A DNA stretch of 64,000 nt, taken from Narcine bancroftii (Eukaryota). Each line of letters begins with the position of its first letter. Position 1 is the first letter of the stretch. The stretch is from NCBI RefSeq assembly GCF_036971445.1, contig NC_091472.1:2852001-2916000 (forward strand), in the 5' to 3' direction. Shown here in pieces: positions 28,815 to 63,511 of this stretch. Both the position numbers and the translations under genes were made by a program. The notes beneath the pieces were generated by a model. It saw nothing but the letters and a program-made list of their open reading frames with translations, ran no database searches and had not been told where the DNA came from.

Positions 28815-29177
28815 GTCTGAAAGCAACTACAGAGCTAATCCAATCCCCAGCGGCCATGAAGGTGCGTGAAGGTCACACGGTTCAGATACGATGTGTCCTG
28901 AACAGCACCAATGTGAAGGTCACTGTGGAGAAATCTGATGTACACTGGTACAACTCACCTGATAAACTAACACAACGAGGAATAGTACTTAGTCTTTACA
29001 CCGATGGCCATGTTTACAGGAAATGGGGCTTCTCCAAGCGATTTCAGCTTTCCAGGGATATGGCCCACAACAGCTACGTACTGACCATCAATAACGTGAT
29101 GGTTAAGGACTCTGATAATTACATCTGTGGCATCTGGGGCACACTCTTTGGAATGGGAACCAAGCTGAATGTGACCA
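28815..29177 (+). CDS. Ig V-set domain exon 1, germline V-J joined (antigen-receptor-like)
   Basis: Acceptor ttcccaccaacag|G and donor ACCA|GTAAGT, phase 1-1, 363 nt open. Motifs: LIQSP, B-strand Cys (QIRC), VHWY, RF.LSRD, Y.LTI, DSDNYIC, then J-like FGMGTKLNVT in the same exon. The ORF-track start at 28748 is an intronic TTG. Confidence 0.93.
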
Positions 29178-29289
29178 GTAAGTACTCTACCTCAGGGAAA
29201 ACACGAGAGTCTGCATACACCGTGGATGAATTAAAAACACAATGTTGGAGGAACTCAGCAGGTCAAACAGTGTCCTTTATGTAGCAAAG

Positions 29290-29412
29290 ATATAGAAACA
29301 TAGAAAGATAGAAGATAGGAGCAGGAGTAGGTCATTCGACCCTTCGAGCCTGCTCCGCCATTCAACGAGATCATGGCTGATCTTAAAGTTCAGTACCCCG
29401 TCCCTGCCTTCT
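29290..29412 (-). mobile_element. CR1 3' tail
   Basis: Nearly identical to 7060-7175. Confidence 0.85.
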
Positions 29413-31821
29413 AACTAACGTGATACACTATTAATACTTTCCAAAGACTGGAAGTTGCCAGACCACAGGCTATAGACAATACTTTCCTTCTTCTATTATA
29501 TCCTAATTTCATCTTCTAAAGCAGGAGCTGCGATATCCCAAATTTCTATCTCTTTAATCCAACAAATCAAACTGTGTTGCTGTTATTTTATGTAGTTTTA
29601 ATTCATGGATTACACAGATAAACATTTTTCATAGTTTCGCATTAAAACTTTCATAACGATGAATCACAAAACGTTTACTGTATAAAGATACAAAAAATAT
29701 AAAAAGCTTCAAAGAGATAAAATTTGAAGAAACATTTCACATGCTCACATTTCCTTCACATCTCACAGAATAATGAGCAAATTATTAGTCTGGGCAGATA
29801 TTGCAACATGTTACAACTAAGAGTTAAAAACACCATATTTTAACCTTTACATTCCGATCCCTAATTATTATAATACACATTAATAGCTAATCTATATTCA
29901 TTACTATGTACAATGTAAATATGTAAGTATAAGATTAGAAATCTAGACTTTCAACTTCCTGTAGAAGACATTTTAATCCGCACTTGCTGAACAAAACCTT
30001 TCTTGTCTGGAACTGTGTTCCCAATTCTCACCAGCAACCAAGAATTTCTTGGTGCAGAATCGTTCATGATAATTACAATATCTCCACATACAAAATTAAA
30101 TTTAGCTTTAGACCATTATTGTCATTCTTGTAATAACAAAAGATATTCTTTAATCCATCTTTTCCAAAATAAATCTGAATTAAATTGCACTTGTTTCCAT
30201 CTGTGTCTCTCATAAAAATTTTTTGAAATTGACCTTTTTTTTCATGTATATGTCGAACAATCAAATCAGAAACATGAAATTCTTTAGCTAATATAATTGG
30301 ATGTTTCACTTCTTCTGACATTATTGCTTTTTCCAATCTTCCTCCTACTCTCAATACATCATTTCCCAGAATAGGATTCACCTTGTAAACATGACTTGTT
30401 TTCGTAATATTCAGATTCTTTAATTTTGATATCTCGTTATCAAAGCCTCTTTCTGACCAAAATGAATTATTTCCAATTCAGCATTTGCCAGCTCGTCAAC
30501 TGTTAGGGAACAGCTCTTTTGAGTCTTCAGATTATCTTTCTTGATACGATTTAAAAGCATAGTTTTAACCTCAGAATCCATGCCACTGCCTTTATATAAA
30601 AAAAAACCATGAAGAGTGATTGCAAATTAATTAAGTGATCGGAGCATTTTCATTAGATATTTGAATAGTATTAACATTAATGTTTTGCATTTCTGGATCA
30701 TCCATAGAAATTATTTTTAATTCTTCCAGATTTTGAAGCCATTCTGCTTGAGATGGCGAAAGAAATTGAGGACCGGACACCCATATATTGGCTCATGAAG
30801 CTATGTCAGCTGGATTATCTAATGTTTTAATATATCTCCATTGATTAGCTTGCAAAACCTTCTGAATCTCATTAATTCTGTTGGTCACAAAGATACTAAA
30901 CCTTGTGGTTTTGTTATTAATGTATTTAAGCACTGATGTACCATCAGTCCAAAACATAGAGTCTGTTAACTCCATCTGTAAATCTCTTCTTAACACAGTC
31001 TCCATTTTGCTCGCCGTAGTAGCGGCCGTCAATTCCATTCAAGGTGTGGTGATTGGCTTTAATGGAGCCGTTCTGGCTTTTTCCATTACAATCCACAATC
31101 TACTCGCTCTTGGTTATTTCTCAGTTTGTAACTGGCAGTTACAAAAGCACCTTCGCTTGCATCAATAAAGTGGTGTAACTGAGCAAATGTGGCAACTCCA
31201 AAGTCTGTTGGTTTAAACCATCTGTTGACTTCAACAATTTCTAACATCTCAATCCTATTTATCCAATCGTGTGTGATGGATTCTGGTATAGTTTCATCCC
31301 ATCCAAATATCCTTCAGCACAATTCTTCGAGAATTTTCTTGGCTATTAATATTCCCAAAGGATGGTATATTGAGCATATAATTGAAAGAATTCTTCTTCT
31401 TGTTCAAGGCAATTCTTTCAAAACAATTTTGAATTTGGAAACATCAGATTGAACACCCCATTGTGCCCCCAGAATTCGTTCAACAGGTAGAACATCACAA
31501 TCCAAGTCCAGATGTTTTATCTCCTTTGCTCTTTCTGCCTCAGGAATAACGGCCAACACATCTCGACTGTTGCAAATCCATTTCGTAAGGAAGAAACCTC
31601 CTTTATTACAGATCTCCTTTAACTCATGATAAAGATTTATTGCTCCTTTTTGTGAAACCACTGAAGTGAGATGATCATCAACATAGAAATTATTTTTATA
31701 GTTTGAGAATGAAATTGCTCTTCTTCATCTTCAGCACATTTCCTGACACCAAATTTGCACAATTCGGTGATGAAGTTGCTCCCAATAGACAGACTATCAT
31801 TCTGTATTCAATCATATCTTA

Positions 31822-34800
31822 ACTTGAAATAGAAGAAATACAGGGGATATTAAAAAAAAACTACTGAACAATAAAACACTGGGAGAGGATGGACTCCCAA
31901 TAGAATTCTATAAAACATTAAAAGACTTATTAATTTCTCCTCTCTTGGAAGTAATGAACCAGATTCATGCCAGATTCATGCAAAACAGCAATAATTACAG
32001 TAATACCAAAGATGGGGAAAGATCCACTAACACCAGCATAATATAGACCAATATCTCTACTTAACACAGATTATAAGATAATAGCTAAACTATTGGCAAA
32101 CAGATTGGCCAACTGTGTACCAAAAATAGTAAAACTAGACCAAACTGGATTTATTAAAAAAAGATGAACAATGGACAATATCTGTAAATTCATTAACTTA
32201 ATCCATGCAGTACAAGGAAACAAAACTCCAACAGTAGCAGTTGCTTTAGATGCAGAGAAAGCCTTTGACAGAGTAGAATGGAATTAGTTATTCAAAGTAC
32301 TACAAAAATTCAACCTACCTGAGAAATATATTAATTGGATTAAAGCATTTTATAAGGGACCATTGGCGAAAGTGACAGTAAATGGATATATATCAAAACA
32401 ATTTAACTTAAGCAGATCAACAAGGCAGGGATGTCCACTATCTCCCTCACTATTCGCATTAGCTATAAAACCACTAGCACAACTGATAAGAACAGAAAAT
32501 AAAATAAGAGGGATAAAAATATAAGAGAAGGAATATAAAGTCAGTCTATTTGCAGATTACGTTATAATATACTTAACAGAACCAGAATAGGAACAGGAGT
32601 AGGCCAAAAATGGCCCATCGAGCCTGCTCCGCCATTCAATACGATCATGGCTGATCTAATTTATGACCTAACTCCACCTACCTGCCTTCTCCCCATATCC
32701 GCTAATTCTTCTATCATGCACAAGCCCTCCCAAGTCCCTCTGCACAACCACATGCTGGAGTTTTTCACCCTTTAAATCATATTCAGCTCTTTTATTTTTC
32801 TTGCCAAAGTGGATCACCTCACACTGACTAACATTGTACTCCATCTGCCAGACCTTTGCCCACTCATCCAGCTTAACTCGATCCCTCTGCAGACTCTCCA
32901 CATCCTCATTACAATTTGCTCTTCCACTCAATTTGGTGTCATCTGCAAACTTGGCTACACCACATTTTGTCCCCTCCTCCAAGTCATCAATGTAAATGAT
33001 GAACAGTTGTGGGCCTAACACCGACCCCTGCGGCACCCCACTTACCACTCTCTGCCCACCTGAAAAACTCCCATTTATCCCGACTCTCTGCCTCCTGTCA
33101 GACAACCAATTTTCAATCCAGGCCAATAGACTTCCCCGGACTTCACTTTCCTGTAATTTACTGAGAAGTCTCTTGTGCGGCACCTTATCAAACGCTTTCT
33201 GGAAATCCAAATAGACAACATCAACCTGTTCCCCTCTATCCACCACACCCATTATATCCTCAAAGAATCCTAACAAGTTTGTCAAACAAGATCTTCCCTT
33301 TCTAAAACCATGCTGCGTCTGCCTGATTGAACCCTTACCTTCCAAAAGTTTCACTCGTTCATCTTTAATGACGGCTTCAAGCATTTTTCCAACTACAGAT
33401 GTCAAGCTAATTGGCCGATAATTTCCAGTCTTCTGTCTACATCCCTTCTTAAAAAGTGGCGTGACATTTGCTGTCTTCCAGTCTGCCGGGACCTGCCCAG
33501 AATCCAAGGAATTTTGGTCTATGACCACCAATGCATCAACTCTAACTTCTGCCATTTCCTTCAGAACCCTTGGATGCATATCATCAGGACCAGGTGATCT
33601 GTCTGGCTTTAGTCCCATTAGCTTCTCCATCACTACTTCCTTTGTAACAACTATTTTATCAAGGCCCTCTCCAACATTCGCTTCCTTAACTCCGCACTTG
33701 GGCATGCTGGACGTGTCTTCCACCGTGAAGACTGACAAAATATTTGTTCAATGCCTCAGCCATTTCCTCATATTTTGCTACCAGTTTTCCTTTCTCATCC
33801 TCCAAGGGTCCTATGTTAACTCTGGCCACCCTCTTCCATTTTATATCTTTATAAAATTTTTTGCTTTCTGTTTTTATATTTTGTGCCAATTGACTTTCAT
33901 AATCCTTTTTCCCATTTCTTATTACCCGCTTTGTTGTCTCTTAGAATTTTCCCAATCTTCCAGTTTCCCACTGCTCTTTGCAGCTTTGTACACCTGCACC
34001 TTCAATTTTATACTCTCCTTTATTTCCTTTGTTAACCACGGTTGATTTTTCCCTCCCTTCTGCCCCTTTTTCTGACCGGAATATATTTTTGTTGCGCATT
34101 ACAAAATATTTCTTTGAAAATCTTCCACTGTTCCTCAACTGTTTCATCAATGAGCCTGTGCTCCCAGTCCACTCTGCCCAATTCCTCCCTCATCCTATGG
34201 TCGTCACCCCTGTTTAAGGATAATCTATTCGTTTTAGATCTAACTCTTTCCCCTTCCATCTGAATGAGAAATTCAATCATACTGTGATCGCTATTTCCCA
34301 GATGCTCTCTGACTATTACATCATTTACTCTCCCTATCTCATTGCACAACACGAGATCCAGGAGAGCATTTTCTCTTGTGGGTTCCTTAACCTGCTGCTC
34401 AAGGAAGCCATCGCGGATGCATTCTATGAAGTCCTCTTCCAGACTCCCATGACCAACTTGATTTTCCCAATCTATGCGGAAGTTAAAGTCCCCCATGACA
34501 ACTGCCGTATCATTATTACATGCCTCACTTATCTCTCTATTTATTTCCTGTGCCACTAAACTATTGTTATTTGGTGGGCGATAGATAACACCCACCAATA
34601 ATTTTTTCCCTTTGTTATTCTTTATCTCTACCCAAATGGACTCAACATTATGCTCTTTAGATCTTACATCATCCCTCACTACTGCCTGGAGCTCCTCTTT
34701 GATTAAGAGTGCAACTCCACCTCCCTTACCATCCTGTCGATCTCTTTGCACCACCTGATACCCTTGAAAGTTTAATTCCCATTTAGGGTCACCTTGTAGC

Positions 34801-35534
34801 CATGTTTCCGTGATGGTGACCCAGTCATAGGCATGGGTACCAATTTGCGCCTCAAGTTTACTAACCTTATTTCTACATGCAATTTGGGCATGTGAGAAAG
34901 TGGAAAAATTTTGGGAAGATCTAAACCCGATATTAAATAAAATCACAATAAACAACATCCCAAAAAATCCAGAGATCTTTCTTCTAAGTAATATAAGTAA
35001 AGAACTAGGTCTCGATTTGGGTGGAGCACAAAAAAGATTTATTATGATAGCCTTAGCTGTAGCAAAAAAAATGTATAATATCAACTTGGAAATCAGAGGA
35101 GAGCCTGAGAATACAGAAATGGTACATGGAAATGAATAAATGTATTCCATTAGAAAAAATATCATATAATTTAAAAAATAACATCACATTATTCGAACAA
35201 ATATGGGAACCGTACATGAAATACAATAGAGAAATCCTACCACGGACCTCCACTGCCTAAAATGACAGAAGGAGAAGAGAACGAAATGAACTGACCCAGT
35301 GTGTAAAAGTACAAGATAAAAATGTTTTTTTTATATTGAGTGACGACATTGTTTAACGGGTTTAATGTATCTTATAGATTGAACTTTGAATAAATGGGGA
35401 AGGGGGGGTTGAGGGAGGGAGGAAAGGAAGGGAGGTAAAGGGGAGAAAATGACACTATATATTCAAGAGAAAAATGTCTGTATATATTTTGGTCAGTATG
35501 GTTTATAGTGTGAACATTTAAAAAAAAAAAAAAA
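31822..35534 (+). mobile_element. 5'-truncated L1 (same family as 22676-28651) nested in the BEL element and interrupted by a CR1
   Basis: 31822-32587 matches 26005-26757; 34875-35534 matches 28027-28650. Poly-A tail. Imperfect TSD aatcatatctt / aatcctgtctt. Confidence 0.9.
32588..34874 (-). mobile_element. CR1 LINE (endonuclease plus RT, with a 3' internal deletion) nested in the L1
   Basis: ORFs 34032-35165 (ITETW, GDFN, SDH) and 32668-33738 (NYRPISLT, QGSVLGP, FADD). Confidence 0.93.
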
Positions 35535-37074
35535 TCCTGTCTTTACTGTAATCGCCATTAGGCCTTTTATATAATTATTTAAAAATCACGATCTTCTGAT
35601 GGTCCTTTCACTTGATGAACCATCGCTTCAATATCTGCAGTAATTACAATAGGCGCTTTACAGAATCCTATCAGACGCCTATTAAAGTACTGGTTTACAT
35701 TGGACCTTTTAGAAGATGAGAATCAAATGACACTCCTTGAAATGATGCTCCACCATCAAATACTACACGTAGTGTCTCCTTTTGTGGATGTTTAACTCCA
35801 TGATGAGGTAAATGCCATTTTCTACCATCTTTACATTCCAAGATACCTTCAGATACCTTTTCTTCGTATCCCTTGGTTATCATGTCCAACATGACGTTTG
35901 TATAATCCAAATGAAAGGTAGAATTTCTTTTGAATTTTCTCTTCAAATTCAGCACACACTATTCTGCAATTATTTTATTATCTGGCATGCAGATTTCCCT
36001 TTCCTTCAAGGGTAATACTATACAGTAATGACCATCAACACGTTTCACAGAATTTGAAATTAAATCCAGAAACAGCTTGTCCTCCTTCAAAGGTTCTTGA
36101 ATAACTGTGAGATATTCAGGAAAATCAATTTTAAACTGTTGTTCCCACAGATCATAAAGTTTCCCAACTAAAATTCTGTGGACATTCATATTCAACGACC
36201 CCCTGATCATTATTCATTTTTCCTCCTAATGGTCCATGAATTGTCCATCCAAACAATGTTCTCATGGCATAAGGTCCATCATTTTGACTCCTTCTGAGGT
36301 TTGAGAGCTTTGGGTGCATCTAATCCAATTAACATCTCGATCTTGGAATCAATCTTAGGCAAGAGAACGTCTTTTAGATGATCCCACTGTTTGATATCAT
36401 CCTGATAGGGAATATTCTCCTTATTCACGGGCACAGTCTTCTGAGTATATACACTTGGAAGATCCCAAAATTCATTGCTATTTGATCCAGCAATCTGTGA
36501 ATCTGCAACTATATTAGTTTCAATGTTCCTTTCATCATTCACTCTCTTCAGTAAGATCTTTGATCTTTTTCCATGAAGATTAAGTTTATTCATTCATTCA
36601 ACAGTACAAAATGATGTAGTACTCCCTGGATGAAGAAATGTGTAGGTCTTCAGTATGAAGATCACCTTTTTAGCTTTAACCTGCACAGGAACTATTGAGA
36701 GGGCTTTGTCGCCAGCCCCAGTGAGACAGTTTGTCTGAACCAAAGCTGAAGCATCCTCTTTGACTGTGTCTTTAGCCTTGGATTCAGATTGTTTGACTTC
36801 CTTCTCAACTTTACTTCATTGAGTATGCAGTAAACTTGGGATGTTTTAAACTGCATATATCACAACTGGGTCGCTTATTACAAGTTTTGCTGATGTGTCC
36901 TTTACACAAGCAACCAGAACATTTTCCATTCTTCTTTAAAAAGATTAATTTCTCATTATATTATCTTTTCTCCAATTGTGAATATCTTTCTGAAGCATGT
37001 CTATCTTTGCCTTACAACCAGATTCCCCGAACAGTCTGATCTTACTTCTCCTTTGCTTCATTGTTCTTTCCTGT

Positions 37075-43695: not shown

Positions 43696-43769
43696 CTTTC
43701 GGGGAATTAAATTCTTTACATCAGTTCTATTTCCAGTCATGTTCCTGTGTGAACGTCTCATCAGTTTCT

Positions 43770-45675
43770 TTCTTAAGAAAGAAATTAGAAAGGCCAAAAA
43801 AAGACACGAAGAGGCTTTGGCAGACAGAGTAAAAATAAATCCAAAGGGTTTCTATAAGTACATTAAAAGTAAAAGATTAGTGAGAGATAAAATTGGACCC
43901 CTTGTAGATAGCGAGGGTCGGTTGAGTGAGAAGTCTGAGGAAATGGGGGAAATTTTGAATGATTTCTTTGCCTCGGTATTCACTAGGGAAAAAAATATTG
44001 AACCAGTTGGAGTAAAGAAAAATAGGGGAGAGGTCATGAAGCATATAAGGATAACCGAGGAGGTAGTGATGGCTGTGTTGAAAAAGATAAAGGTGGATAA
44101 ATCTCCGGGACTGGACAAAATATTCCCAAGGACACTCAGGGAGGGTATTGGCAAGTGGGGCCATTAACAGAGATATTTAGGATGTCACTGGCCACAGGGG
44201 TGGTGCCAAAGGATTGGAGGGTGGCGCATGTGGTTCCGCTGTTTAAGAAAGGGTCCAAATGTAAACCTGGGAATTATAGGCCCGTGAGTCTGACGTCTGT
44301 GGTGGGCAAGTTGATGGAAAGTGTTCTGAGGGATGGTATTTACAAATATTTGGAGGTACAGGGATTGATAGGGAGTAATCCGCATGGTTTTGTCAGGGGT
44401 AGATCATGCTTAACAAACCTTATAGAGTTTTTCGAGGGGGTTACAAAAAAGGTTGATGAAGGGAAAGCTGTGGATGTTGTCTATTTAGATTTTAGTAAAG
44501 CTTTTGACAAAGTTCCCCATAGGAGGTTAGGAAAAAAGGTGGAGGCATTAGGTATAGATAAGGAGGTAGTGAAATGGATTCAGCAGTGGTTGGATGGGAG
44601 GTGCCAGAGAGTAGTGGTAGAAAATTGTTTGTCTAATTGGAGGCCGGTGACTAGTGGAGTTCCTCAGGGATCAGTCCTGGGTCCACTATTGTTTGTTATA
44701 TATATTAACGATCTGGATGTAGGGGTGGAGAATTGGATAAGCAAGTTTGCGGATGACACAAAGATTGGTGGTGTTGTGGACAGTGAGGTAGATTACCGTA
44801 GATTAAAAGGTGATTTAGGAAGGCTGGAGGTGTGGGCTGAGAAATGGCTGATGGAATTTAATACAGATAAGTGTGAGGTGTTACATTTTGGAAAGGCAAA
44901 TCTAAATAGGTCATATGCATTAAATGGTAGACAATTGAGGAGTGCAGAGCAACAAAGGGATTTAGGAGTGATGGTAAATAGTACCCTCAAGGCTGATACT
45001 CAGGTAGATGGTGTGGTGAAGAAGGCATTTGGAATGTTGGCCTTCATAAATTGGAGTATTGAATTCAAGAGTAGGGAGGTTATGATGAAATTGTACAAGG
45101 CATTGGTGAGGCCAAATTTGGAGTACTGTGTACAGTTTTGGTCACCAAATTATAGGAAAGATATAAACAAAATAGAGAGAGTGCAGAGAAGGTTCACGAG
45201 AATGTTGACAGGATTTCAGGGTCTGAGTTACAGGGAAAGGTTGTGGAGACTGGGGCTTTTTTCTCTGGAGCGTAGAAGATTGAGAGGGGACTTGATAGAG
45301 GTGTTTAAGATTTTAAAAGGGACAGAAAGAGTAAATGTGGATAGGCTTTTTCAATTAAGAAAGGGGGAGATCAAACTAGAGGACATGGTTTAAGATTGAA
45401 GGGGGAAAATTATAAGGGGAACATGAGGGGAAATTTCTTTACGCAGAGGGTGGTGGGGATGTGGAATGAGCTTCCGGCAGACGTGGTCGAGGTGGGATGA
45501 TTGGTTACATTTAAGGAAAAACTGGATCGTTACATGGATAGGAGGGGACTAGAGGGGTATGGACCGGGTGCTGGTCAGTGGGACTAGGAGGGTGGGGATT
45601 TGCTACGGCATGGACTAGTAGGGCTGAACTGGCCTGTTCTGTGCTGTAAGTGGTTATATGGTTATATGGTTATAG
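43770..45675 (+). mobile_element. CR1 LINE, 5'-truncated, young
   Basis: 412-aa RT ORF at 44155-45393 with FADD; (tggttata)n tail. Confidence 0.95.
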
Positions 45676-45985
45676 TAATGGGGATACCATGTTTAACAAG
45701 AATATCTGCATACCTGGGGTCAAGGGCCTTACACGAATGTGCTGGAGAAACTCAACGAAACGCAATGGCAGCACTGACGCTGGAGATGATCCATTTCCCC
45801 ACTCAGCCCCACTGCCTGGCCTTCTCTCCGTAGCCTTTGATGCCCTGGCTAATCAAGAACCTATCAATCTTTGCCTTAAATACTCCCAATGACCCAGCCT
45901 CCACAACCCCCTGTGACAACAAATTCCACAGATTCACCTCCCTCTGGATAAAGAAATTCTTCAGCATCTCTGTTCTAAGTGGACA

Positions 45986-48900
45986 CATAACATAACATAA
46001 CATAACATAACATAACAATTACAGCACGGAAACAGGACATTAGGCCCTTCTAGTCCGCACCGGACCAAACACCCCTTTCTAGTCCCACCTCCCTGCACAA
46101 TGCCCATAACCCTCCATCTTCTTCTCATCCATATACCTGTCCAACCTTTTCTTAAATAATACAATTGACTCCGCCGCCACTATTTCTCCCGGAAGATCAT
46201 TCCACACAGCTACCACTCTCTGAGTAAAGAAGTTCCCCCTCATGTTACCTCTAAACCTCTGCCCCTTAATTCTTAACTCATGTCCTCTTGTTTTAATCTT
46301 TCCTCCTCTTAACGGAAATAGTCTATCCACATCCACTCTGTCTATCCCTTTCATAATCTTAAATACTTCTATCAAATCCCCTCTCAACCTTCTACGCTCC
46401 AAAGAATAAAGACCCAATCTGTCCAATCTCTCCCCATACTCCAGATGCTTAAACCCAGGCAACATTCTGGTAAACCTTCTCTGCACTCTCTCCACTCTGT
46501 TTATATCCTTCCTATAATTAGGCGACCAGAACTGCACACAGAACTCCAAATTAGGCCGCACCAACGTCTTATACAATCTCAACATCACCTCCCAACTCCT
46601 ATATTCCATGCAATGATTGATAAAGGCCAGCATACTAAAAGCCTTCTTCACCACCCTATTCACGTGAGTTTCTACCTTCAGGGAACGATGTACCGTCACT
46701 CCTAAATCTTTCTGCTCTTCTGTATTCCTCAATGCTCTCCCATTTACCACGTATGTCCTATTCTGATTCTTCTTACCAAAATGAAGCACCTCACATTTAT
46801 CAGCATTAAATTCCATCTGCCATTTTTCAGCCCACTTTTCTAAGCAGCCCAAATCCCTCTGCAATCCTAGAAAACCTTCTTCATTATCCACTATTCCACC
46901 TATCTTAGTATCGTCTGCATATTTACTAATCCAATTCACCACCTCATCATCTAGATCATTAATGTATATAACGAACAACAATGGGCCCAATACAGATCCT
47001 TGAGGCACACCACTGGTCACCGGCCTCCAACCTGACAGACAATTATCCACTACCACTCTCTGGCCTCTCCCTTTCAGCCAATGTTCAATCCATTTGACTA
47101 TCTCAAAATTTATACCTAAAGACTGCACCTTCCTAACTAACCTTCCATGTGGTACCTTATCGAAGGCCTTACTGAAGTCCACATAGACAACATCCACTGC
47201 GCTACCCTCATCCACATTCCTAGTCACCTCTTCAAAAATTCAATCAGATTGGTCAAACATGACCTTCCTCCCACAAATCCATGTTGAGTGCTCCTGATCA
47301 GACCCTGTCTATCCAGATGTTTATAAGTACTATCTCTAAGAATTTTCTCCATTAATTTACCTACCACAGACGTCAAACTTACAGGCCGATAGTTGCCAGG
47401 CTTCCTCCTTGAACCCTTTTTAAATAACGGAACCACATGCGCAATGCGCCAATCCTCCGGCACTATCCCCATATCTAATGACATTCGAAAAATTACCGCC
47501 AGAGCCTCTGCTATTTCCTCCTTCACTTCTCTCAATGTCCTGGGGAAGATCCCGTCTGGTCCCGGAGACTTATCCATCTTTATATTCTTCAAAAGCCTTA
47601 AAACTACACCTTTTGTAATCTCTATATTCCCCATATTTACCCAATTTGCTTTTTTTATCCCACATCTCCCAATATCCTTCTCCTTAGTGAATACTGAAGA
47701 AAAGAAACTGTTCAATATCTCCCCCATTTCTCTAGGTTCCACACACAGTTTTCCACTCTGATTTTCTAAGGGAACAATTTTGTCTCTAGCTTTCCTCTTA
47801 ACATTAACATATTTGTAGAACTCTTTTGGATTAGTTTTCACCCTGCTTGCCATAGTTTTCTCGTACCTTCTTTTAGCTTTCCTAATTCCTCTCTTAAGAT
47901 TCCTCTTACATTCAATGTATCTTTCAAACATCTCCTTAACTCCATGCTTCTTATATCTAATGTACGCCTCCCTTTTTCTTCGAACCAAGTTTCCAATATT
48001 CCTTGAAAACCACGGCTCTCTCAAACCTTTTGCCCCTCCTTTTAACCTAACAGGAACATAAAGCTTTTGCACTCTCAAAATCTGATCTTTAAAAGACTTC
48101 CATCTCTCTACTACATCCTGCCCATAAAACAAATTGTCCCAATGCACACCCTGCAAGTCCTTTCGCATCTCCTCAAATCTAGCTTTTCCCCAATCAAAAA
48201 CCTCAATCCTTGGCCCTGATTTCTCTCTTTCCATAATGACATTGAAGCTGATGGCATTATGATCACTGGACCCGAAGTGCTCGCCAACACTAACCTCCGT
48301 CACTTGACCCATCCCATTTGCCAACAGTAGATCTAACACTGCTCCTTCTCTGGTCGGCACCTCTACATATTGTTGTAAAAAACTATCTTGCACACATTTC
48401 ACAAACTCTAACCCATCCATTCCTTTCACAGAATGTGTTTCCCAATCTATATGTGGAAAATTAAAATCTCCCATAATTACAACCCTGTGCTTATCACAAA
48501 TATCTACTATCTCCCTACAGATTTGCTCCTCTAGGTCTCGGTCCCCTCCGGGTGGTCTATAATACACCCCTACAAGTGTAACCTCTCCTTTCCTACTCCT
48601 CAGTTCCACCCAAATAGCCTCCGTGGATGTGCCCTCTAATCTATCCTTCCTAGGCTCCGCTGTAATATTTTCCCTGACAAGCAATGCAACCCCACCTCCT
48701 CTTGCCCCTCCGACTCTATCACACCTAAAACAACGAAACCCAGGGATATTCAGTTGCCAATCACATCCCTCCTGCAACCATGTCTCACTAATCGCTAACA
48801 CATCATACTTCCAAGTATCAATCCACACCTTCAGCTCATCCACCTTTTTTACAATACTCCTGGCATTAAAATATATGAATTTCAGGGATTTCCCATTTTT

Positions 48901-49620
48901 TAATCCCTGTTTTCCCTCATCTTTAAGAACAACATTATTTACTTTTCCTGACAATTGCCCTTCATCTTCTTCCAGAGCATTTCCCTTCTCTATCACCTGC
49001 CCATCCATATTCAAATACTTACTACAAACTTTCATTGTTTCCATTCTAACCTTCTCCTTACTGCTCTGTACTATTTTGTTCCCTCCCCCCAACCATTCTA
49101 GTTTAAAGGATCCTGAGTAGCCCTAGCAAATACCTCTGCCAGGATTCTGGTCCCCCTGGGATTTAAGTGTTACCCGTCCTTACTGTACAGGTCACATCTC
49201 CCCCAAAAAAGGTCCCAGTTATCCAGAAACTTAAAACCCTGCCCCTTACTCCACCCCTCCACCTCATTCTATTTCTATTCACACTGTCACGTGGCACAGG
49301 GAGTAATCCAGTGATTACCCCCTTTGCGGTCCTTCTTTTTAACTCCCTACCTAACTGCCTGTACTCACTTTTTAGGACCTCTTCTCTATTTCTCCCTATG
49401 TCATTGGTACCTACATGTACCACGACCTCTGGCTCCTGTCCCTCCCACTTTAGGATATCCGGGACACGAGCAGCAACATCCCGGACCCTGGCACCAGGGA
49501 GGCAAACCACCATCCGGTTCTCCTTGCTGCGTCCGCAGAATCCCCTATCCGTCCTCTTAACTATGGAGTCTCCTAGCACAATTGCCCTCCTCTTCCTTTC
49601 CCTCCCTTTCTGAGCTACAA
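45986..49620 (-). mobile_element. Long young CR1 LINE (ORF1 SGNH esterase part plus ORF2 with one frameshift), inserted in an older CR1 3' fragment (45790-45985 plus 49620-49810)
   Basis: GDSIV/VGTND esterase motifs (49163-49620). Endonuclease-RT ORFs 47224-49092 and 46079-47227 (YADD). (cataa)n tail. Confidence 0.95.
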
Positions 49621-49879
49621 TCTTGATGTTGTGCCCTCTTTTCCTAGACTCTCCCACCGTGGGAAACAACTTTTCTACATCTACTCTGTCCAAATTTCAA
49701 AATGTTTCAATGAGATCCCCCCTCATTCTCCTAAATTCCAACGAGTCCAGGCCAAGAGCTGTCAAAAGCTCCTCATTTGATATCCCTTTCATTCCCGGAA
49801 CCATCCTTGCGATGGGACAAATGCAGAGATGATGATTCCTTCACTGAGGCAGAGTCTGGAATTGAGAGATTGCCATGTA

Positions 49880-52430: not shown

Positions 52431-55318
52431 AGCAGCAGCAGGTAATAAATAGTGGCCATGGTAACAATTGTAGAGAGGGTGAGAGGCAGAAAGTTAAATG
52501 TGGAAGATCTCTGAGGTGCATTTATTTGAATGCAAGGAGTGTGGTAAATAAATGGATGATCTGATGGTGTGGATTGACACGTGGCCTTATGATGTGAGAG
52601 CAATTAGTGAGACATGGTTGAAGGAAGGTTGTGACTGGCGGTTAAATATTCCGGGATTTCACAGCTTTAGACATGACAGGATTGGTGGGGTATGAGGGGG
52701 AGGTGTGGCGTTGTTTGTCAGGGAAGATATTACAGCGGAGCTGAGGCAAGATAAACTCGAGGACAAATCGCGTGAGGAGGTGAGACTACAAATATAGGGG
52801 TATATTATAGGCTGCCAAAAGAGGATAGGGAACTGGAAGAGCAAATGTGCAGGGAAATAGCTGAAATGTGTAGTAGAAACAGGGTTGTGATAGTTGGGGA
52901 TTTCAATTTGCCGAACATTGATTGGGAAACACAATCAGTGAGAGGGCAGGATGGCTTAGACTTTCTACAGTGTGTTCAGCATTGCTTTTTAAGCAGTATG
53001 TTGAAGTGCATACCAGAGGGGAGGCAGTGTTGGATCTATTGTTAGGTAACAGAATAGGGCAGGTGACGGAAGTGTGCATTGGTGAGAACTTTGGGTCCAG
53101 TGATCATGGGCATGTTAGCTTCAACTTAAATATGGAAAGGGATAGGTCAGGTCTGAGGATGAAGGTCTTCAAGAGGGGGAAGGCCAGATTTGAAGAAATG
53201 AGAAGGGATTTGCAGAAATTGTATGGGCTGATCTTTTTTCTGGAAAGGATGTAGAGGGGATTTGGAGGGTATTTAAAGAAGAGATATTGAGAGTACAGGA
53301 TCTTTAGGTGTCAGTTAGGTTGAAAAGCAAGGACAAAAGTTCAAGGCAACCGTGGTTTTCTGGAAAAATTAGGAAGGTGGTTTGGGATAAGAGAAGGGTA
53401 TTTACTAAATTTAAGAAGCAAAAAATGGATAAGATGTATGGTTATTACATAGATTGCAGAAAAAACCTGAAGAAGGAAATTAGAAAGGCCAAAAGAAGGT
53501 ATGAGGTGTCAATAGCTGATGAGGTAAAAGTGAATCCTAAGGGTTTGTACAGACATGTGAATACTAAAAGGAGGGTTAAGGATAGAATAGGACGGCTGGA
53601 AAATGAGAGCGGTGAACTGTGGGAGGAACCGTATCAGATGGGAGAGATATTAAACGATTTTTTCTCATCTGTGTTCAGGAAGGAAAAGGACATTGGATTG
53701 TGTGAGATAAGTGAGGCAAATGGCTCAGTTATGGAAAAGATTGGAATTAGTAAAGAGAGGGTTTTGGAGCTTCTAAGGTCAGTAAAAGTGGATAAGTCTC
53801 CTGATCCTGATGGGATTTTCCCCAGGACGTTAAGGGAGGTCAGGGAGCAAATAGTGGAGCCACTGTCAGTGGTTTTTCAACGATCACTGGAGGAGGGTGT
53901 TGTGCCGTGGGATTGGAGGGTTGCTAATGTAGTTCCCTTGTTTAAACAAGGCCCAAGGTGTTGGCCAAGTAATTATAGGTCTGTAAGCTTGACTTCAGAG
54001 GTAGGGAAAGTTATGGAGGGTATTCTTAGAGATGGTGTGTATAAATATCTAGATAAGCAGGGATTGATCAGGAACACCCAGCATGAGTTTGTGAAGGGGA
54101 AGTCATGTTTGACGAACCTTGTTGAGTTTTTCGAAGAAGTGACAAGGAAGGTGGATGAAGGTAGGGCAGTTGATGTTGTCTATCTGGATTTTAGCAAAGC
54201 TTTTGATAAGGTTTCACATGAAAGGTTAGTAAGGAAGGTTCAGTCACTAGGGATTAATAGAGAAATAGAAAGATGGGTTCAGGGGTGGCTGAAGGAGAGA
54301 CAGCAGAGGGTCATGGTGGACAACTCTCTGTCAGGATGGAAGCCTGTGACGAGCGGCGTGCCTCAAGGATCGGTACTTGGTCCCCTGTTGTTCATAATTT
54401 ATATTTGGATGATGGGGAGGTTAACTGGGTAAGTAAATACGTGGTGCGTAGCGAGGAAGGTTTTCAGGGATTACAGAGGGATTTGGTTTGTCTGGAGAGT
54501 TGGGCTGATGGAATTCAATGTAGATAAGTGTGAGGTGCTTCATTTTGGTAAAAATAATCTAAATATGTAGTAAAGGGGAGGACATTTGGGAATGCACAGA
54601 ACAAAGAGATCTTGGAGTTATGGTGCAGTGTTCCTTGAAGGTGGATTCCCATGTTGACAGGGTAGTTAACATTTGGTATGTTAACCTTCATAAATTATAG
54701 CATAGAGTATAGGAGCTGGGAAGTGATGCTGCGAATGTTTAAAGTGTTGGTGAGGCCATGTTTGGAGTATTGTGTTCAGTTCTGGTCTCCAAATTATAGG
54801 AATGATGAGGAGAAGGTGGAGAGGGTGTAGAGAAGATTTACAAGGATGTTGCTTGGCTTAAAATACCTTGTGTACAGAGAAAGATTGGAGAGGTTAGGAC
54901 TTTATTAATTGGAACGTAGATGTTTTAGAGGGGATTTGATAGAGGTGTTTAAAATTATGAAGGGAATAGATAGACTAGATGCAAGTAGACTCTTCCCCCT
55001 GAGAGCAGGGGAGGTTGAAACAAGAGGACACAAGTTGAGAGTAAGGGGGAAAAATTTTAGGGGAAACGTTAGAGGATGTTTCTTCTCTCAGAGAGTGGTG
55101 GCTGAATGGAATAATCTTCCAGAGAAAACAGTTGAGGCAGAGTCAATTCTTTCACTTAAGAGGAGGCTGGATATATACATGGATAGGAGGGGGTTGGAGG
55201 GTAATGGGCGGAGAATAGGCAGAGGGATCTAACGGAGTTGTTTGAGTGAACTGGCGTGGACTTGAAGGTATGAGGTGGCCTGTTTCCATGCCATAAACTG
55301 TTATATATGGTTATATGT
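52430..55318 (+). mobile_element. CR1 LINE ORF2 (degraded) nested in the preceding CR1
   Basis: GDFNLPNIDW and SSDH motifs, ORF 53308-54432, 3' tail tggttatat. Confidence 0.9.
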
Positions 55319-56140: not shown

Positions 56141-59100
56141 AACTAGAAAATCATCATTTGCCTTCTTAATTGCCTATCACATCTGCATGGCTGACACCTC
56201 TGGCATGGTTCTGGAGGACTGAAACATTGCAAAAGTCACTCCACTATTTAAAAAGGGAGGGAGGCAACAGAGAGGAAATTGGAGACCTGTTCACCCAACA
56301 TCGGTGCTTGGGAAGTCATTGGAGTCGATGGTCAAGGATGGGATTATCGGGTACCTGTAAATGCATGACTAGATAGAGTAATGTCAGCATGGCTTTCCCC
56401 TCTTGGCTTTCGTAACATTGAGTACAAGGTTATTTCTGTGTTACAGAGTTCTGTGTTGTGTATTGGCCTATGCCTTATATGGATTTGTGTTGAAAAGTGA
56501 CAGTTTGCCTTAGAGAGCCAAGGTAAAGGTGGACTGCTGAGAGAGTGGGAGACAGACTGAGCATATGCAGAAAATGATCTTGAAATTTCTGAACTTGGAC
56601 AATAAACACCACTGGGTGGTGCTGTGGAGTGGAAGAAGGCCCAGAGCATGAGTCATGATCTGGAGGACAGTTGAGAATGTTGGGCATTTCATAAAGGGAT
56701 GAACATTTCGAAGGGAGCCAAAAGGATCCGGACCAAGCCAGTAGTTCCTCTCTCTGCAAGCAACACAAGACAACTTCGAATTTTGTGCTCTCTCTCTCTC
56801 AAAGATCTTTTGGCTTCATTTTACCAAACAAACTGAATTTTGTTTATGATCTTTGCTTCGGTTGAGATCAAAGTTTTGTGTGTCTTGTGTGTTTTGTGTT
56901 TGTTTTGTGTCTAAGTATTTCTGTGGGCTGGTTGGAAATATAACTTAGACTTTAATTACATATGTTATATTTAGGCTGGGGAATTTATTCATTTTACACT
57001 GTTATAGAGATGTGCATTGTTATAAAAGTGGACATTGTTATAAAAGGGGGGATTTTGAATTAAAGTTTGAAGGTGAATTTTTTGTTAATAAAGTCATTGT
57101 TCATCTTTACCCCTGTGTGATCTGCCTTCTTTGTGGTTCCTGGTTTGATCTTGTAACATAATTTGGGGGAATCATCCGGGATCAAACCTATTTTGAAGCT
57201 TGAGAGGCGATTGACTTGTGTTTAGTTATCAGTCGTCTGAGTTTGACTCAACCTCCAGCTTGAAATTAAAAATAAACGGTGAGTGTATAAATCAACATCT
57301 GATAAACCAGCAACTATGAATATTGACCAGTTCATCGCGAACCCTTCAGTGGTTAAAATAAAAATGGCTAAAAAATCAGAACTGATGGTTATAGTTGGGA
57401 AGTTAAAACTTCTTACAGTAAAAACTGGGATGAAAAAAAGGAAATTGCCCAAAAGATTGTTAAGCTCTATGTAGGGAAGGGGGTATTTGAAGAAGCTGCA
57501 TTAGAACAGTTTCCAAAGGAGAAAACTTCAGAGGAAGTAAAGTTGGCTTTGAGAAAACTCGAGTTAGAGGAAAAAAGAGAGGCAGGCAGAAATGGAGGAG
57601 AGAGAGAAAGAATGGAAGCATGAGCTAGAACTAGCTAAATTAAAGCTGACCCTATGCAAGGAGAGGGAGAAGCCCAAAACCCACGTGCTGGTCAGGAGGT
57701 GAGGTTTCTGGTCAGTAGAGAAGTGAGGTTAGTTCCTCCATTTGAGGAAGCTGAAATAGACCAGTATTTTCAGCATTTTGAGAAAGTAGCTGTAAATTTA
57801 AAATGGCCTCCAGACCAGTGGTCACTCCTGCTACAAAGTGTTCTTAAAGGGAAAGCCCAACAGGTGGACTCGTGTCTCACTGTAGAACAAGCAGCTGATT
57901 ACGAATTTGTAAAGCAGGCTATTCACCGATCTTATGAACTAATTCCAGAGGTTGACAGACAAAAGTTCAGGAGTTTAAAAAACACAGCAACCCAATCTTA
58001 CCTGGATTTTGCTTATAGGAAGGTTGTGTGTTTTGATCGGTGGTGTGCCACAATGAAGGCAGAAAATAACATTGATTTATTAAGGGAAATCATTCTGATT
58101 GAGGAGATTAAAAATTGTGTTCCTGACGATATTCAAGTGTACTTGGCAGAGAAAAATATAAAAACTTGGCAAGAATTGGCTAAATTCGCAGAGGAATATG
58201 CTTTAACCCACAAGCCTAAGTGGATACCAGGGAAAACCTTTCAAAGGAAACTGCTGTTAATCCAAGTAGAGTAGAAAGAAAATCTTGAAGTGAGGTTAAA
58301 GGAAGAGGTTAAAGGAAGAAAGTTTTCGAGTGTTATTTGCCACTGTTGTAAGAAGCCAGGGCACATAATAGCAAATTGTCCTGTACTGAAAAGGAAGAAA
58401 GAGAAAAGGGTGGTACCAACTGCCTGTGTTCAGAGTGTAGAAAAAATAAGGAAACAGTTTTATTGGATGAAATTAAGAAAGGATGTTGTAAAGTTTTGTC
58501 GAACCTGTCACACTTGTCAACTAGTGGGCACGCCTAATCAAGGACCACCAGTGGCACCTTTACAACCCATTCCTGCTTTTGGGCATCCCTTCTCAAAAGT
58601 GATAGTGGATTGTGTTGGCCCATTGCCAAAAACCAAAGCAGGAAATGAATATTTGTTAACATTCATGTGCACAGCTTCAAGGTTTCCAGAGGCTATTCCC
58701 CTGAGAAACATTAAAGCAAATACAATTGTGAAGGCTATGCTAAAATTTTTCACACTGTTTGTCCTACAAAGGGAAATTCAGTCGGACCAAGGGAGTAATT
58801 TTATGTCTGGAATATTTCAACAGGTGGTGTATAAATTGGGAGCCCATCAAATTGTGTCGTCTACCAATCATCCTGAAAGTCAAGGGGCCTTGGAAAGGTT
58901 CCATCTAACTGTGAAAAATATGATGAGGGCTTATTGTGTGGAAAATAATAAGGATTGGGATGAAGGAATCCATTTGTTATTGTTTGCTGTTAGAGGGGCA
59001 ACTCAGGACTTTAGTCCATTTGAGTTGGTGTTTGGTCATGAAGTCAGGGGTCCATTACTATTTTTGAAGGAACAATAATGAGCTACAAACAAATTTTTTG

Positions 59101-61322
59101 GATTATGTTTTCAAATGTAAAAACAGATTATATCAGGCTTGCGGGATGACAAGAAAAAATTTTAAAACTGCTCAGGGAAAAATGAAAATTCGGTATGATC
59201 AAAAATCAAAAATTAGGGACATTAAACCTGGCGACAAAGTATTGGTTTTGTTTCCAATAGAGTGAAATCCATTGAGAACTCAGTTTTCAGGACTGTATAA
59301 GGTGAAATCAAAAATTAACCAGGTCACCTATGTCGTTGAGATACCTGATCGTCGAAGAGAGACACAGGTCTGTCATGTGAACATGCTTAAACCTTACTTT
59401 GAGAAAATGACTGTGGAGGAGACTAAGATTCCAACCAAGGTGCTAGTTATAGAGGAAAGTAAGGAGCAGATAAGTTTCGTGGAAGGTCATGGAGCACAGA
59501 AAGTGATAAGGCTGGAAAATTCTATAGTTTTGCAAAACTTAGAAACCAAGTTAATGCATTTGACTAAATCAGAAAGGGAAGAAATGAAGACATTACTTAT
59601 GAAATTTAAGGATATAGTCCCAGATGTTCCAAGAAGAACTACTGTGGCTTGTCATGATGTGGAGGTCGGTGATGCTAAGCCTATTAAGCAGCATCCTTAC
59701 CGAGTTAATCAGGGAAAGAGCAGATTGTTGGATCAAGAGGTGGATTATATGCTCAAAAATGACATCATTCGAAAATCAAGTTCAAATTGGAGTTCACCCT
59801 GTGTTCTGGTGCCTAAGCCAGATGGCTCAATTAGGTTTTGTACAGATTATCAAAAGGTAAACATGGCGACAAAGACTGATGCATTTCCAATTCCCAGAAT
59901 AGATGATTGTATAGATAAGGTTGGGGAAGACTAAGTTTCTTACAAAGATTGATCTCTTAAAAGGTTACTGCTATGTTCATTTGACAGAGAAAGGCAGGGA
60001 GATTTCTGATTTTGTTACACCTTCGGGATTGTATGAATATAATGTTATGCCTTTCAGGATGAAAACTGCACCTGGCATATTTCAGTGAATGATTAATGTA
60101 CTAATTCAGGGTTTAGAGCATACAGGAGCCTATATCGATGATTTAGTAATTTGTACAGATACATGGGAAGAACACTTGCTTGAATTAGAGCAGTTATTTC
60201 AGTGACTGGTGGAAGCACACCTCACAGTGAATTTGCACAAGAGTGAGTTTGGATGTGCCACTGTAATTTATCTGGGTTATGTGGTAGGACAGGGACAGGT
60301 GGCACCAGTTGGAGCGAAAGTATTGGCTATCACTGTGTTCCCTATCCCTGGTAATAAGAAAAGTCTTCAGAGATTTCTAGGTATGATTGGCTACTATCAT
60401 AGATTTTGTAAAAACTTTGCAGAAATTGCACTCCCATTAACAAAACTACTTGGAAAGAGAGAAAAAATATATCTGGTCAGATGTATGCCAGGAAGTGTTT
60501 CTGAAGTTAAAGGACATTTTATGCCATCAGCCTGAATTTGTGTCCCCTAACTTTTAAAAGCCATTCTCTTTAGCCGTGGACGTCAGTGATGAAGCGGTTG
60601 GTGCTATACTGTTAAAGAAGAAGGATGGTGATGGAGTGGAACATCCTATTTCATACTTCTCAAAAAAGTTTAACAATCATAAACTAAATTATTAAACCAT
60701 TGAGGAGTTATTAGCGCTTGTTTTAGCATTGCAACATTTTGATGTGTATATTTCTACTGTTCAAAAACCATAAATAATATATACTGATCATAATCCATTA
60801 GCTTTTCTGTCTAAAATGAAAAAGAAAAACAGACGGTTAGTGAACTGGAGCTTACTATTACAAGAGTATGATTTAATTATTACAAACATAAAGGGGACAG
60901 ATAATGTAATAGCAGATTGTTTGTCAAGATATTAATCTGGGTAGATATAAATCTAATCACATACTTATTGTAAAAATAATGGAGTGTTTATTTTATTTTA
61001 TTTATGTCATACTTCCATTAATTGTTAAAAAATTGTTGTTGTGAGCCAATTTCTTTTTAGCAGGTCAGGTGTTACAGAGTTCTGTGTTGTGTTTTGCCCT
61101 ATGTGTTGTGTGGATTTATGTTAAAAAGTGACAGTTTGCCTTAGAGAGCCAAGGTGAAGGTGGACTGCTGAGAGAGTGGGAGACGGACTGAACATGTGCA
61201 GAAAATGATCTAGATATTTCTGGACTTAGACAATAAACACCACTGGGTGGTGCTGTGGAGTGGAAGAAGGCCCAGAGCAGGAGTCATGGTCTGGAGGAGA
61301 GTTGAGAATGTTGGGCATGTCA

Positions 61323-62358
61323 TGTTGGGTGCCGCAGGGTTCAGTGTTAGACCCACAACTGTTCATCATTTACATTGATGACTTGGAGGAGGGGACAAAA
61401 TGTGGTGTAGCCAAGTTTGCGGATGACACCAAATTGAGTGGAAGAGCAAATTGTAATGAGGATGTGGAGAGTCTGCAGAGGGATAGAGTTAAGCTGGATG
61501 AGTGGGCAAAGGTCTGGTAGATGGAGTAAAATGTTAGTAAGTGTTAGGTGATCCACTTTGGCAAGAAAAATAAAAGTGCTGAATATTATTTAAAGGGTGA
61601 AAAACTACAGCATGCTGTTGTGCAGAGGGACTTGGGAGGGCTTGTGCATGAATCGCAAAAAGTTAGGTTGCAGGTGCAGCAGGTTATTAAGAAGGCAAAT
61701 GGAATGTTGGCCTTCATCGCTAGAGGAATTGAATTCAGTGGTAGGGAGGTCATGTTGCAACTGTATAAGGTACTGGTGAGACCGCACCTGGAGTACTGTG
61801 TCCAGTTCTGGTCTCCATATTTGAGGAAGGGTATACTGGCTTTGGAGACGGTCCAGAGGAGGTTTACTAGGTTGATCCCTGGGATGAAGGGGTTGACTTA
61901 AGATGAAAGATTAAATCGTCTAGGATTGTATTCGCTCGAGTTCAGAAGAATGAGAGGAGATCTTATAGAAACATAGAGGATTATGAAGGGTATGGATAGG
62001 ATAGATGTAGTAAGGTTTTTTGAGCTGGCCGGAGAAACAAAAATGAGAGGACACAGTCTCAAGATTCGGGGGAGTAGATTTAGGACAGAGATGAGGAAAA
62101 ATAGTTTTTCCCAGAGAGTAGTGAATGTTTGGAATTCTCTAACCAGGGAAGTGGTTGAGGCTGCCTCATTAAACATATTTAAAATTCGGTTAGATAAATT
62201 TTTACATGATAGAGGAATTAGGGGATCTGGGGAGAAGGCAGGTACGTGGAGTTAGGTCATAAATTAGATCAGCCATGATTGTATTGAATGGTGAAACAGG
62301 CTCAATCGGCCATTTTTGGCCTACTCCTGTTCCTACTTCCTATGTTCCTATGTTCCTA
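61323..62358 (+). mobile_element. CR1 3' fragment inserted in the Gypsy 3' LTR
   Basis: Absent from the 5' LTR. VPQGSVLDP and FADD motifs, ctatgttc tail. Same subfamily as 32588-34874. Confidence 0.92.
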
Positions 62359-62458
62359 TAAAGGGATGAACATTACGAAGGGAGCTAAAAGGATCCAGTC
62401 CAAGCCAATGTTTCCTCTCTCTGCAAGCAACACAAGAAGACAACTTCAAATTTTGTGT

Positions 62459-62530
<72 letters not shown>
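62459..62530. repeat. (TC)n microsatellite in the 3' LTR
   Basis: About 36 TC units, versus about 7 at the equivalent 5' LTR site (about 56787-56800). Confidence 0.95.
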
Positions 62531-63166
62531 AAAGATCTTTTGGTTTCAGTTTACCAAACAAACTGAATTTTGTTTATGATCTTTGCTTCAGTTGAGATCG
62601 AAGTTTTGAGTCTTGTGTGTTTTGTGTTGGTTTTGTGTCTAAGTTTTTCTGTGGGCTGGTTGGAAATATAACTTAGACTTTAATTACATATGTTATATTT
62701 AGGCTGGGGAAATTATTCATTTTACACTGTTATAGAGATTTGCATTGTTATAAAAGTGGACATTGTTATAAAAGGGGGGATTTTGAATTAAAGTTTGAAG
62801 GTGAATTTTTGTTAATGAAGTAATTGTTCATCTTTACCCCTGTGAGATCTGCCTTCTTTGTGATTGCTGGTTTGATCTTGTAACAGCTGTGGCCCCACAC
62901 AACGAGCTGATCGCTCTCCCTCCTGTGCATCCGGGCATCTGCCGGTGACCGTGGTGTCATCTGCAAATCCGTACATGGCATTTGTATCGAGCCCAGTCAC
63001 ACCGTCATGGGTGTAGAGAGAGTAGATTAAGTTGCAGATTCAGATGTAAATGTGATTTTAATCTCAGAAACAAGGAAGTCTTTGCTGTTTCCTGAGACCC
63101 CAGGTCATGAATGTCTTTACATTGACATATTCTGGATTTTAAGTTCTTGATATTCTCCCTTCTCAG

Positions 63167-63511
63167 GTGTGAACGTTCCTGTCCTGATCCAATCCCCAAG
63201 CCTGGAGCGCATCACTGAGGGCCACACAGCACGGTTATGCTGTGCCATGCAAAATGCCTGGCTGGAAAAAACTGACGTCCACTGGTACCGAGAACTACCC
63301 GGGCAGGGGATGGAGTGGGTTTTAACCCACGAGGCAGGAGGCGCCACACGAAGACGGGCAAATTCTCCTGAGCGGTTTGAACCCTCCAGGGACGTCTCCA
63401 ACAGCAGCTTCATCCTGATGGTCTCAGATGTGGAGCCCGGTGATTCTGCCGTATATTACTGCGTCGTGTGGGGAGATATCAGTGGGAACGGAACCCGGCT
63501 CATAGTGACCG
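63167..63511 (+). CDS. Ig V-set domain exon 2, germline V-J joined (antigen-receptor-like)
   Basis: Acceptor ttctcccttctcag|G and donor ACCG|GTGAGT, phase 1-1, 345 nt open. Motifs: LIQSP, RLCC, VHWYRELPGQGMEWV, RFEPSRD, DSAVYYC, then J-like SGNGTRLIVT. Confidence 0.93.

Follow-up and report, generated by a model that had tools for sequence, protein, structure and literature searches.

Receptor genes whose variable (V) and joining (J) segments share one germline VJ exon, such as UrIg, PRARP, NKp30 and the NITRs, are usually taken as relics of the gene that was invaded by RAG. The NITRs of teleosts, gar and bowfin, as described in bioRxiv 10.1101/2021.06.11.448072, form clusters of VJ-exon receptors that do not rearrange; some members inhibit and others activate, and a membrane-proximal I domain contains six conserved cysteines. 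UrIg, UrIg2 and PRARP also have a single VJ exon and a split leader in elasmobranchs (PMC12227049 and PMC10751288), and the former source regards UrIg2 as a relic of VJ-C1 type. MDIR, CD300 and pIgR-like receptors are likewise built from modular V domains and come in activating and inhibitory versions, MDIRs being known in skate (PMC3031540), and the CEACAM1/CEACAM3-type pairs combine a tail bearing immunoreceptor tyrosine-based inhibitory or switch motifs (ITIM/ITSM) with a tail resembling an immunoreceptor tyrosine-based activation motif (ITAM) (cf. PMC5112662). Among antibody genes, the immunoglobulin (Ig) light chain sigma-2 (also sigma-cart, type I or NS5) has a split leader, a single VJ exon when joined, and fixed lengths of complementarity-determining regions (CDR) 1 and 2; it is germline-joined in gar, turtle and coelacanth according to PMC5985310, in Table 2 of which type I is equated with sigma-2, and PMC2193156 gives type I as germline-joined in skates. 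In the latter paper, Lee et al. 2000 suggested that an Ig gene, once rejoined, might become a novel receptor, noting that the idea lacked a direct example; a commentary (PMC2193153) repeated it. Here we analyzed a stretch of 64,000 nucleotides (the window) from the electric ray Narcine bancroftii (assembly GCF_036971445.1, contig NC_091472.1, positions 2,852,001 to 2,916,000), and we conclude that it very probably holds part of a real, spliced gene for a likely inhibitory receptor that belongs to a paired receptor family of cartilaginous fishes.

A sequence-only reading of the window had recognized two V domains, V1 and V2, in open, symmetric phase 1-1 exons surrounded by fragmented transposon-like open reading frames (ORFs). 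These observations held, as did the AG/GT exon borders, and the motifs named there were all recovered: LIQSP-x4-(V/I)-x-EGHT, EK(S/T)DVHWY, RF..SRD, and C-GIWGTL-FGMGT in V1 or C-VVWGDI-SGNGT in V2, with six-residue CDR3 loops in both domains and a Cys-Trp spacing of 17 residues in V1 versus 13 in V2. The two-V picture was incomplete, as the window ends inside the gene. Searching the animal's own genome revealed two like exons, V3 and V4, at 6.7 and 12.7 kb beyond the window end and no further close copies of V1 or V2 beyond these. The gene consists of four germline VJ exons, a transmembrane (TM) exon and three tail exons, of which the window covers the outer half only, and its leader is split and completed at the start of the V exon, like antigen-receptor leaders.

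RNA evidence was taken from contigs of four runs of one study, which are not registered as RNA; these contigs contain the V2 exon without the preceding intron. The V1-V2 joint was present in all four runs, as was the V3-V4 joint across a GT..AG intron. The V2-V3 joint appeared as a loose end in run X3 and as a contig in runs X1 and X2, the first part of which cross-mapped to V4 with 11 differences. A 1035-base contig of run X3 extended beyond V4, and the loose end before V3 in run X4 was mixed (4 contigs, agreement 0.78). Direct V1-V3, V2-V4 and V4-TM joints were not seen in the contigs of the four runs, and the leader-V1 joint comes from the RefSeq model rather than from a direct contig, that stretch containing a minisatellite. 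Two separate genes for V1 and V2 were ruled out, since the two exons are spliced together.

In a search for longer proteins with V2 as the query, the N. bancroftii RefSeq models P0095, P0006 and P0010 matched at 97-100% identity over the V, TM and last exons. RefSeq isoform X1 (599 amino acids) follows the order leader-V1-V2-V3-V4-TM-tail, isoform X3 is without V1, and isoform X2 terminates in a TM-less exon. Pfam assigned four V-set domains and no C1 domain to P0095, and the alignment-based model of this protein (mean predicted local distance difference test score, pLDDT, 75.1) showed four V folds and a TM helix at residues 491-525. Its predicted template modelling score of 0.34 does not support the packing of the domains. 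Foldseek matched the model to engineered multi-V antibodies and pIgR at TM-scores of 0.16-0.23, which are uninformative on kinship; sequence searches of the PDB gave generic antibody matches only, and a single-sequence fold of V2 (pLDDT 45.5) was not used. The last exon encodes IHYADV and TEYAVI, which we take to fit the ITIM and ITSM consensus, respectively. The product would be a type I membrane protein and is predicted to act as an inhibitory receptor. Tails of ITIM/ITSM type are also found in PD-1, BTLA and the Siglecs. The first tail exon (L024) reads TISATI where many orthologues have TVYATV, so a membrane-proximal tyrosine motif was lost in N. bancroftii.

V and J lie within one exon, and the split V and J segments flanked by recombination signal sequences (RSS) that define rearranging receptors were not found: only 4 weak RSS-like sites occur in 102 kb, none of them adjoining a V exon. 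Exons that do not rearrange, as the sequence-only reading implied, are thereby supported. A VpreB-like surrogate chain and a rearranging locus were ruled out by the TM-tail module together with the missing RSS. Neither an Ig-type octamer nor a cAMP response element was present in positions 9001-9760.

Family matches numbered 94; the 93 named ones represent 23 species of cartilaginous fishes, namely sharks, rays and one chimaera, and the remaining one carries no species name; none of the named matches lies outside the cartilaginous fishes. When V1 was searched against 1.84 billion representatives, family members ranked first, followed by light chains, T cell receptors (TCR) and other V proteins. 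Names were checked for only 20 of the 150 matches listed, besides those named earlier, and absence beyond cartilaginous fishes is therefore not proven. The models carry 1-9 V domains, although the extremes could reflect models that are fused or incomplete. Of the 101 family proteins compared, a set that includes isoforms and partial models, 19 have YxxL/I-x6-8-YxxL/I at the end, in many cases preceded by a YEN motif; TxYxx(V/I) occurs in 31, and two Tyr motifs mark a third type of tail. ITAM-type and ITIM/ITSM-type members with similar ectodomains occur together in at least ten species, the activating members having an ITAM-type tail of their own and an uncharged TM segment, and a search with the inhibitory tail returned family members only (25 matches among 100 candidates). 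Opposing tails, assigned by motif match, on similar ectodomains place the family in the functional class of paired Ig-type receptors. One result weighs against this for the electric ray: an ITAM-tailed paralogue was not found in the N. bancroftii genome, and so the gene may be unpaired in this species. Divergent family members include a Rhinoraja protein with a very long repetitive stalk (P0056), a two-domain subfamily (P0113/P0117/P0238) and a single-V protein with a tyrosine-rich end (P0118).

No description of the family was found in the literature searched, whose coverage stopped short of most subscription papers and of one set of supplements, including the elephant shark genome immune-gene supplement; we provisionally regard the family as undescribed. 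That it has been described already as MDIR, NITR or pIgR-like receptors seems to us decidedly unlikely. NITR-named clusters ranked top in ESM Atlas features (0.93), and pIgR was among the multi-V Foldseek matches. However, the I domain with its six cysteines is absent, all four domains being V-set, six LOC ids of family members are not mentioned in the literature searched, and RefSeq names of family members are arbitrary. The cluster at 250.7-251 Mb on contig C11, which we take to be CD300-like and which served for the comparison with MDIR/CD300-type receptors, was absent from the match lists of both V1 and V2 at E 0.01. The domains are of VJ type and light-chain-like, and lack the extra cysteine pair that is presumably the CD300-type feature.

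The sequence-only reading regarded V1 and V2 as diverged paralogues kept under purifying selection. They do share an old duplication (37% identity over 116 columns, E 1e-25, far above chance), but they are not each other's closest relatives. Identities over the V segment were 32% for V1-V2, 37% for V1-V3 and 74% for V2-V4; V1-type (A) and V3-type (C) domains grouped in 967 of 1000 trees, V2 grouped with V4 (type B), and V1 grouped with V2 alone in none. As V2 pairs with V4 and V1 with V3, the gene appears from these comparisons to be a duplicated (A/C)-B two-exon unit. Between V2 and V4 there are 61 differences in 342 bases, by hand count approximately 26 synonymous and 35 replacement, giving a dN/dS of about 0.4 if a quarter of sites are taken as synonymous, a rough value from one pair. 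This value and the open frames of orthologues across the group agree with constraint. The signature proved less unusual than first thought: much of it, including the CDR3 Trp, is common to sigma-2 light chains, and part of the V1/V2 likeness is coincidental in this species, since V1 orthologues have EGGT, EGET or EGQT for EGHT and DK or NK for EK.

The same reading proposed that two V domains bind one fixed ligand and are diversified by exon skipping as an alternative to recombination, which we now consider very unlikely. The leader-V2 joint that skips V1, which that reading predicted, is real, being present in contigs of one of the four runs (X4) and in RefSeq isoform X3; the V1-V3 joint of a form skipping V2 was not seen. 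CDR3 is short and similar among orthologues; the dN/dS of the V2/V4 pair also fits this proposal. However, few domain-number forms are possible, which would not amount to a repertoire, and the gene has four V exons of which the supposed pair are not sisters. Across species, the identity of V1-type domains to V1 is no more than 46-69%, their CDR1 and CDR2 and the gene number differ, and tails oppose, which is the pattern of paired receptors; the varying domain number and tail type argue against one fixed ligand.

Outside the family, the best matches in the animal's own genome were germline-joined light chains on contig C12. We infer that these are sigma-2, because the other light chains look lambda (contig C9) or sigma (C8) and their relatives include horn shark light chains, and because PMC5985310 equates type I with sigma-2. 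In the reciprocal direction, searching with a V of this type from whale shark yielded 39 matches among 105 candidates, comprising 35 such light chains and four family members at 45-47% identity. Mean identity of V2 was 42% to elasmobranch sigma-2, against 29% to the UrIg-like V, 28% to lambda, 26% to TCR gamma and 25% to Ig heavy chain (IgH). V2, V3 and V4 align to elasmobranch sigma-2 without gaps, V2 being colinear up to CDR3, whereas V1 has four extra CDR1 residues. V2 shares RF.PSRD.S.NS..L with sigma-2 and keeps its V-end Trp, three places past the second Cys, and the J start G-x-I-x-G-x-G-T. The short CDR3 can be read as a V end that abuts a J start. In a core tree (43 rows, 99 columns), the rows of which were chosen after a wider 57-row result, family and sigma-2-like rows stood apart from all others in 989 of 1000 bootstraps; the family was sister to elasmobranch sigma-2 in 632 and to the coelacanth sequence in 233, and never joined the CD28/NCR3-like outgroup. 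The UrIg-like row of the tree is our own identification, and NITR, UrIg2 and MDIR lay outside it. These results suggest that the V domain probably derives from a germline-joined sigma-2 light chain. As to the stronger proposal, that the family was founded by a RAG coding joint formed in a germ cell, that its six-residue CDR3 preserves a sigma-2 V-J junction as a fossil, and that an antibody gene was converted into paired ITIM/ITAM receptors in sharks, rays and chimaeras, we consider the case evenly balanced.

Several results count against this derivation. No database name identifies the C12 chains as sigma-2, V1 is only 35% identical to sigma-2, and the core alignment has only 99 columns. When ten more family domains (most of them divergent) and four more reference rows were added, the resulting 57-row tree had the family-plus-sigma-2 split in 0 of 1000 bootstraps, the family never formed one clade, and the outgroup fell inside it; an 86-row tree leaves the deep forks open. 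Neither a light-chain constant exon nor an RSS relic was found near the locus (no C1-set exon on C9 below 203 Mb among the 133 matches listed, 150 of 170 candidates having been scored), and sigma-2 genes are on contigs other than that of the receptor. Two other histories were weighed.

In one of these, the VJ exon would stem from the still unsplit exon into which the RAG transposon inserted, and its likeness to sigma-2 would reflect no more than sigma-2 being the slowest-changing or earliest-branching antigen-receptor V. The approximately unbiased (AU) test does not reject the corresponding constraint tree (p 0.235), and the outgroup position in the wider tree, the lack of an RSS relic, and the UrIg2-like combination of one VJ exon and a split leader (PMC12227049) are all in keeping with it. 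We nevertheless regard it as unlikely: named matches are confined to cartilaginous fishes, V2 is as near to elasmobranch sigma-2 (42%) as the coelacanth sigma-2-like V is (41%) and far nearer than to other antigen receptors, a C1 domain is lacking, and the neighbours are CHRNA2/4-like and PAQR genes rather than MHC or Ig/TCR genes. The other, which we hold to be equally unlikely, makes the family a sister of sigma-2, either through a common joined ancestor inside the light-chain radiation or with the exon arising from a retrocopied mRNA of a rearranged sigma-2 gene instead of a germline RAG joint. The AU test does not reject a monophyletic sigma-2 that excludes the family (p 0.445), the locus is unlinked to the sigma-2 genes, and the join is too old for N or P bases to show. 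A retrocopy would have lost the leader intron, yet it is retained at the antigen-receptor position, and elasmobranch and coelacanth sigma-2 came together without the family in only 38 of 1000 core trees.

Descent from a joined sigma-2 gene, the reading we prefer, also fits the detailed comparison with that light chain. Type B domains and sigma-2 (mean identity 38-47%) agree in the gap-free framework, CDR1 and CDR2 lengths, the RF.PSRD.S.NS..L motif, the V-end Trp and the J motif, and the family also has the split leader and single VJ exon described for the joined gene (PMC5985310). In contrast, sigma-2 has one VJ exon followed by a C1 exon and no TM segment, whereas the family has no C1, 1-9 tandem V domains, its own TM segment and a tail with tyrosine motifs, and its CDR3 is cut to six residues. 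The J motif of type B domains contains an N-G-T sequon and a Ser at the usual aromatic position, and Fv-like pairing with a heavy chain is for this reason unlikely. Light chains of the sigma-2 class pair with an Ig heavy chain in B cells, whereas the interface residues of the family appear partly changed. V2 has three cysteines, the extra one adjoining the first canonical one (LCC), and V1, V3 and V4 have two each.

The clustered, non-rearranging NITRs are alike in having inhibitory and activating forms and, as in the V1/V2 gene, single-exon V domains with a J motif. The activating members of the family differ from the NITRs, by the published description of these, in their own ITAM-type tails and uncharged TM segments, and they occur in cartilaginous fishes. 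UrIg, UrIg2 and PRARP have VJ followed by C1 domains and are linked to the MHC or the Ig/TCR complex, neither of which was found for the receptor gene and its surroundings within 454 kb, and the UrIg-like V of this genome is 23-29% identical to the family V domains. The ectodomain of the CEACAM pairs is unrelated. The family would work like NITR-type paired receptors, and by the features tested it is not NITR, UrIg/PRARP or light chain.

The coordinates of the gene are collected in Table 1. Neighbouring genes were surveyed within 454 kb, with Pfam applied to 12 candidate ORFs of 909 unique ORFs: the neuronal nicotinic receptor alpha-2/4-like gene lies approximately 40 kb upstream of the leader and the PAQR gene 108 kb beyond the last exon. 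Some 69% of the window consists of sequence repeated in this 454-kb region, and the GC-rich block of intron 1 is the minisatellite. The ORF L027:8623-9171 (-), 22 kb beyond the last exon of the receptor, has tyrosine motifs and no Pfam match; we presume a resemblance to LIME1/PAG1-type adaptors.

Table 1. Features of the receptor gene in Narcine bancroftii, in window numbering continued past the window end (position + 2852000 = coordinate on G000:C9).
Feature	Position	Strand	Remarks
Leader exon, ATG to phase-1 donor	9746..9794	+	100% match to residues 1-17 of P0006
Minisatellite, 22-bp unit	11184..17466		Intron 1; ~286 copies, 6.3 kb, non-coding
V1 exon, germline VJ, type A	28815..29177	+	363 nt, phase 1-1; membrane-distal; CDR1 four residues longer
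V2 exon, germline VJ, type B	63167..63511	+	345 nt, phase 1-1; gap-free to elasmobranch sigma-2 V up to CDR3; LCC at 63238-63243, N-G-T at 63487-63495
Intron 3 start	63512..64000	+	Gene continues beyond window end
V3 exon, type C	70694-71041		Genome search
V4 exon, type B	76696-77040		Genome search
Alternative TM-less last exon	about 86948-87148		RefSeq X2 model only
TM exon	90147-90291		
Tail exons, two	94294-94337 and 101373-101416		
Last exon	109965-110081		IHYADV, TEYAVI, stop
Fragmented LINE- and LTR-like (gag/integrase) ORFs in introns	57639-59931	+	Presumed long interspersed element and long terminal repeat retrotransposon
Same	22566-27844, 32671-35183, 44101-49696, 53308-54429		

Other loci of the genome were also inspected. 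IgH/TCR-like clusters lie on contigs C11 and C5. On C5 (L121, 184.85-184.87 Mb, minus strand), a lone VJ exon precedes three C1 exons, with butyrophilin-like and NCR3-like exons nearby; this locus is likely the UrIg of this species. At L065 and L132 (C27, 11.24 Mb), 2.4 kb separate a VJ exon from the C1 exon downstream of it, an architecture resembling that of PRARP. All intact light-chain V exons inspected (L005-L010, L042, L043, L075; sigma-2-, lambda- and sigma-type) are germline-joined. Broken sigma-2-type copies occur on C12 (L020, L076, L077), where several such pseudogenes have a common insertion of about 12 residues in CDR2, and on C11 (L019, L127, L128; 190.4 and 192.8 Mb), the contig of the IgH/TCR alpha-delta-like cluster.

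We propose that a germline RAG event joined a sigma-2 V to its J prior to the split of chimaeras from elasmobranchs, which lies more than 400 million years back. The phase 1-1 VJ exon, freed of its constant exon, may then have landed before a TM-tail module and duplicated into A/C and B types, and redoubling of the (A/C)-B pair would have yielded V1-V2-V3-V4. The distal V1 is predicted to bind a cell-surface or microbial ligand, with V2-V4 serving mostly as a spacer; skipping of V1 would place V2 at the tip, and ligand binding could be changed or lost. Phosphorylated ITIM and ITSM motifs are established recruiters of SHP-type phosphatases, through which the receptor may damp a leukocyte, and the ITAM-tailed paralogues would signal through Syk-family kinases.

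If this origin is correct, the family would provide the direct example missing from Lee et al. 2000, and single-exon VJ genes need not predate rearrangement; the family suggests traffic in the reverse direction, from adaptive back to innate immunity. It would also add to the leukocytes of cartilaginous fishes a candidate system of activating and inhibitory receptors with ITAMs within the receptor chain, for which the electric ray, with its seemingly single inhibitory gene and V1-skipping isoform, may offer a simple test case.

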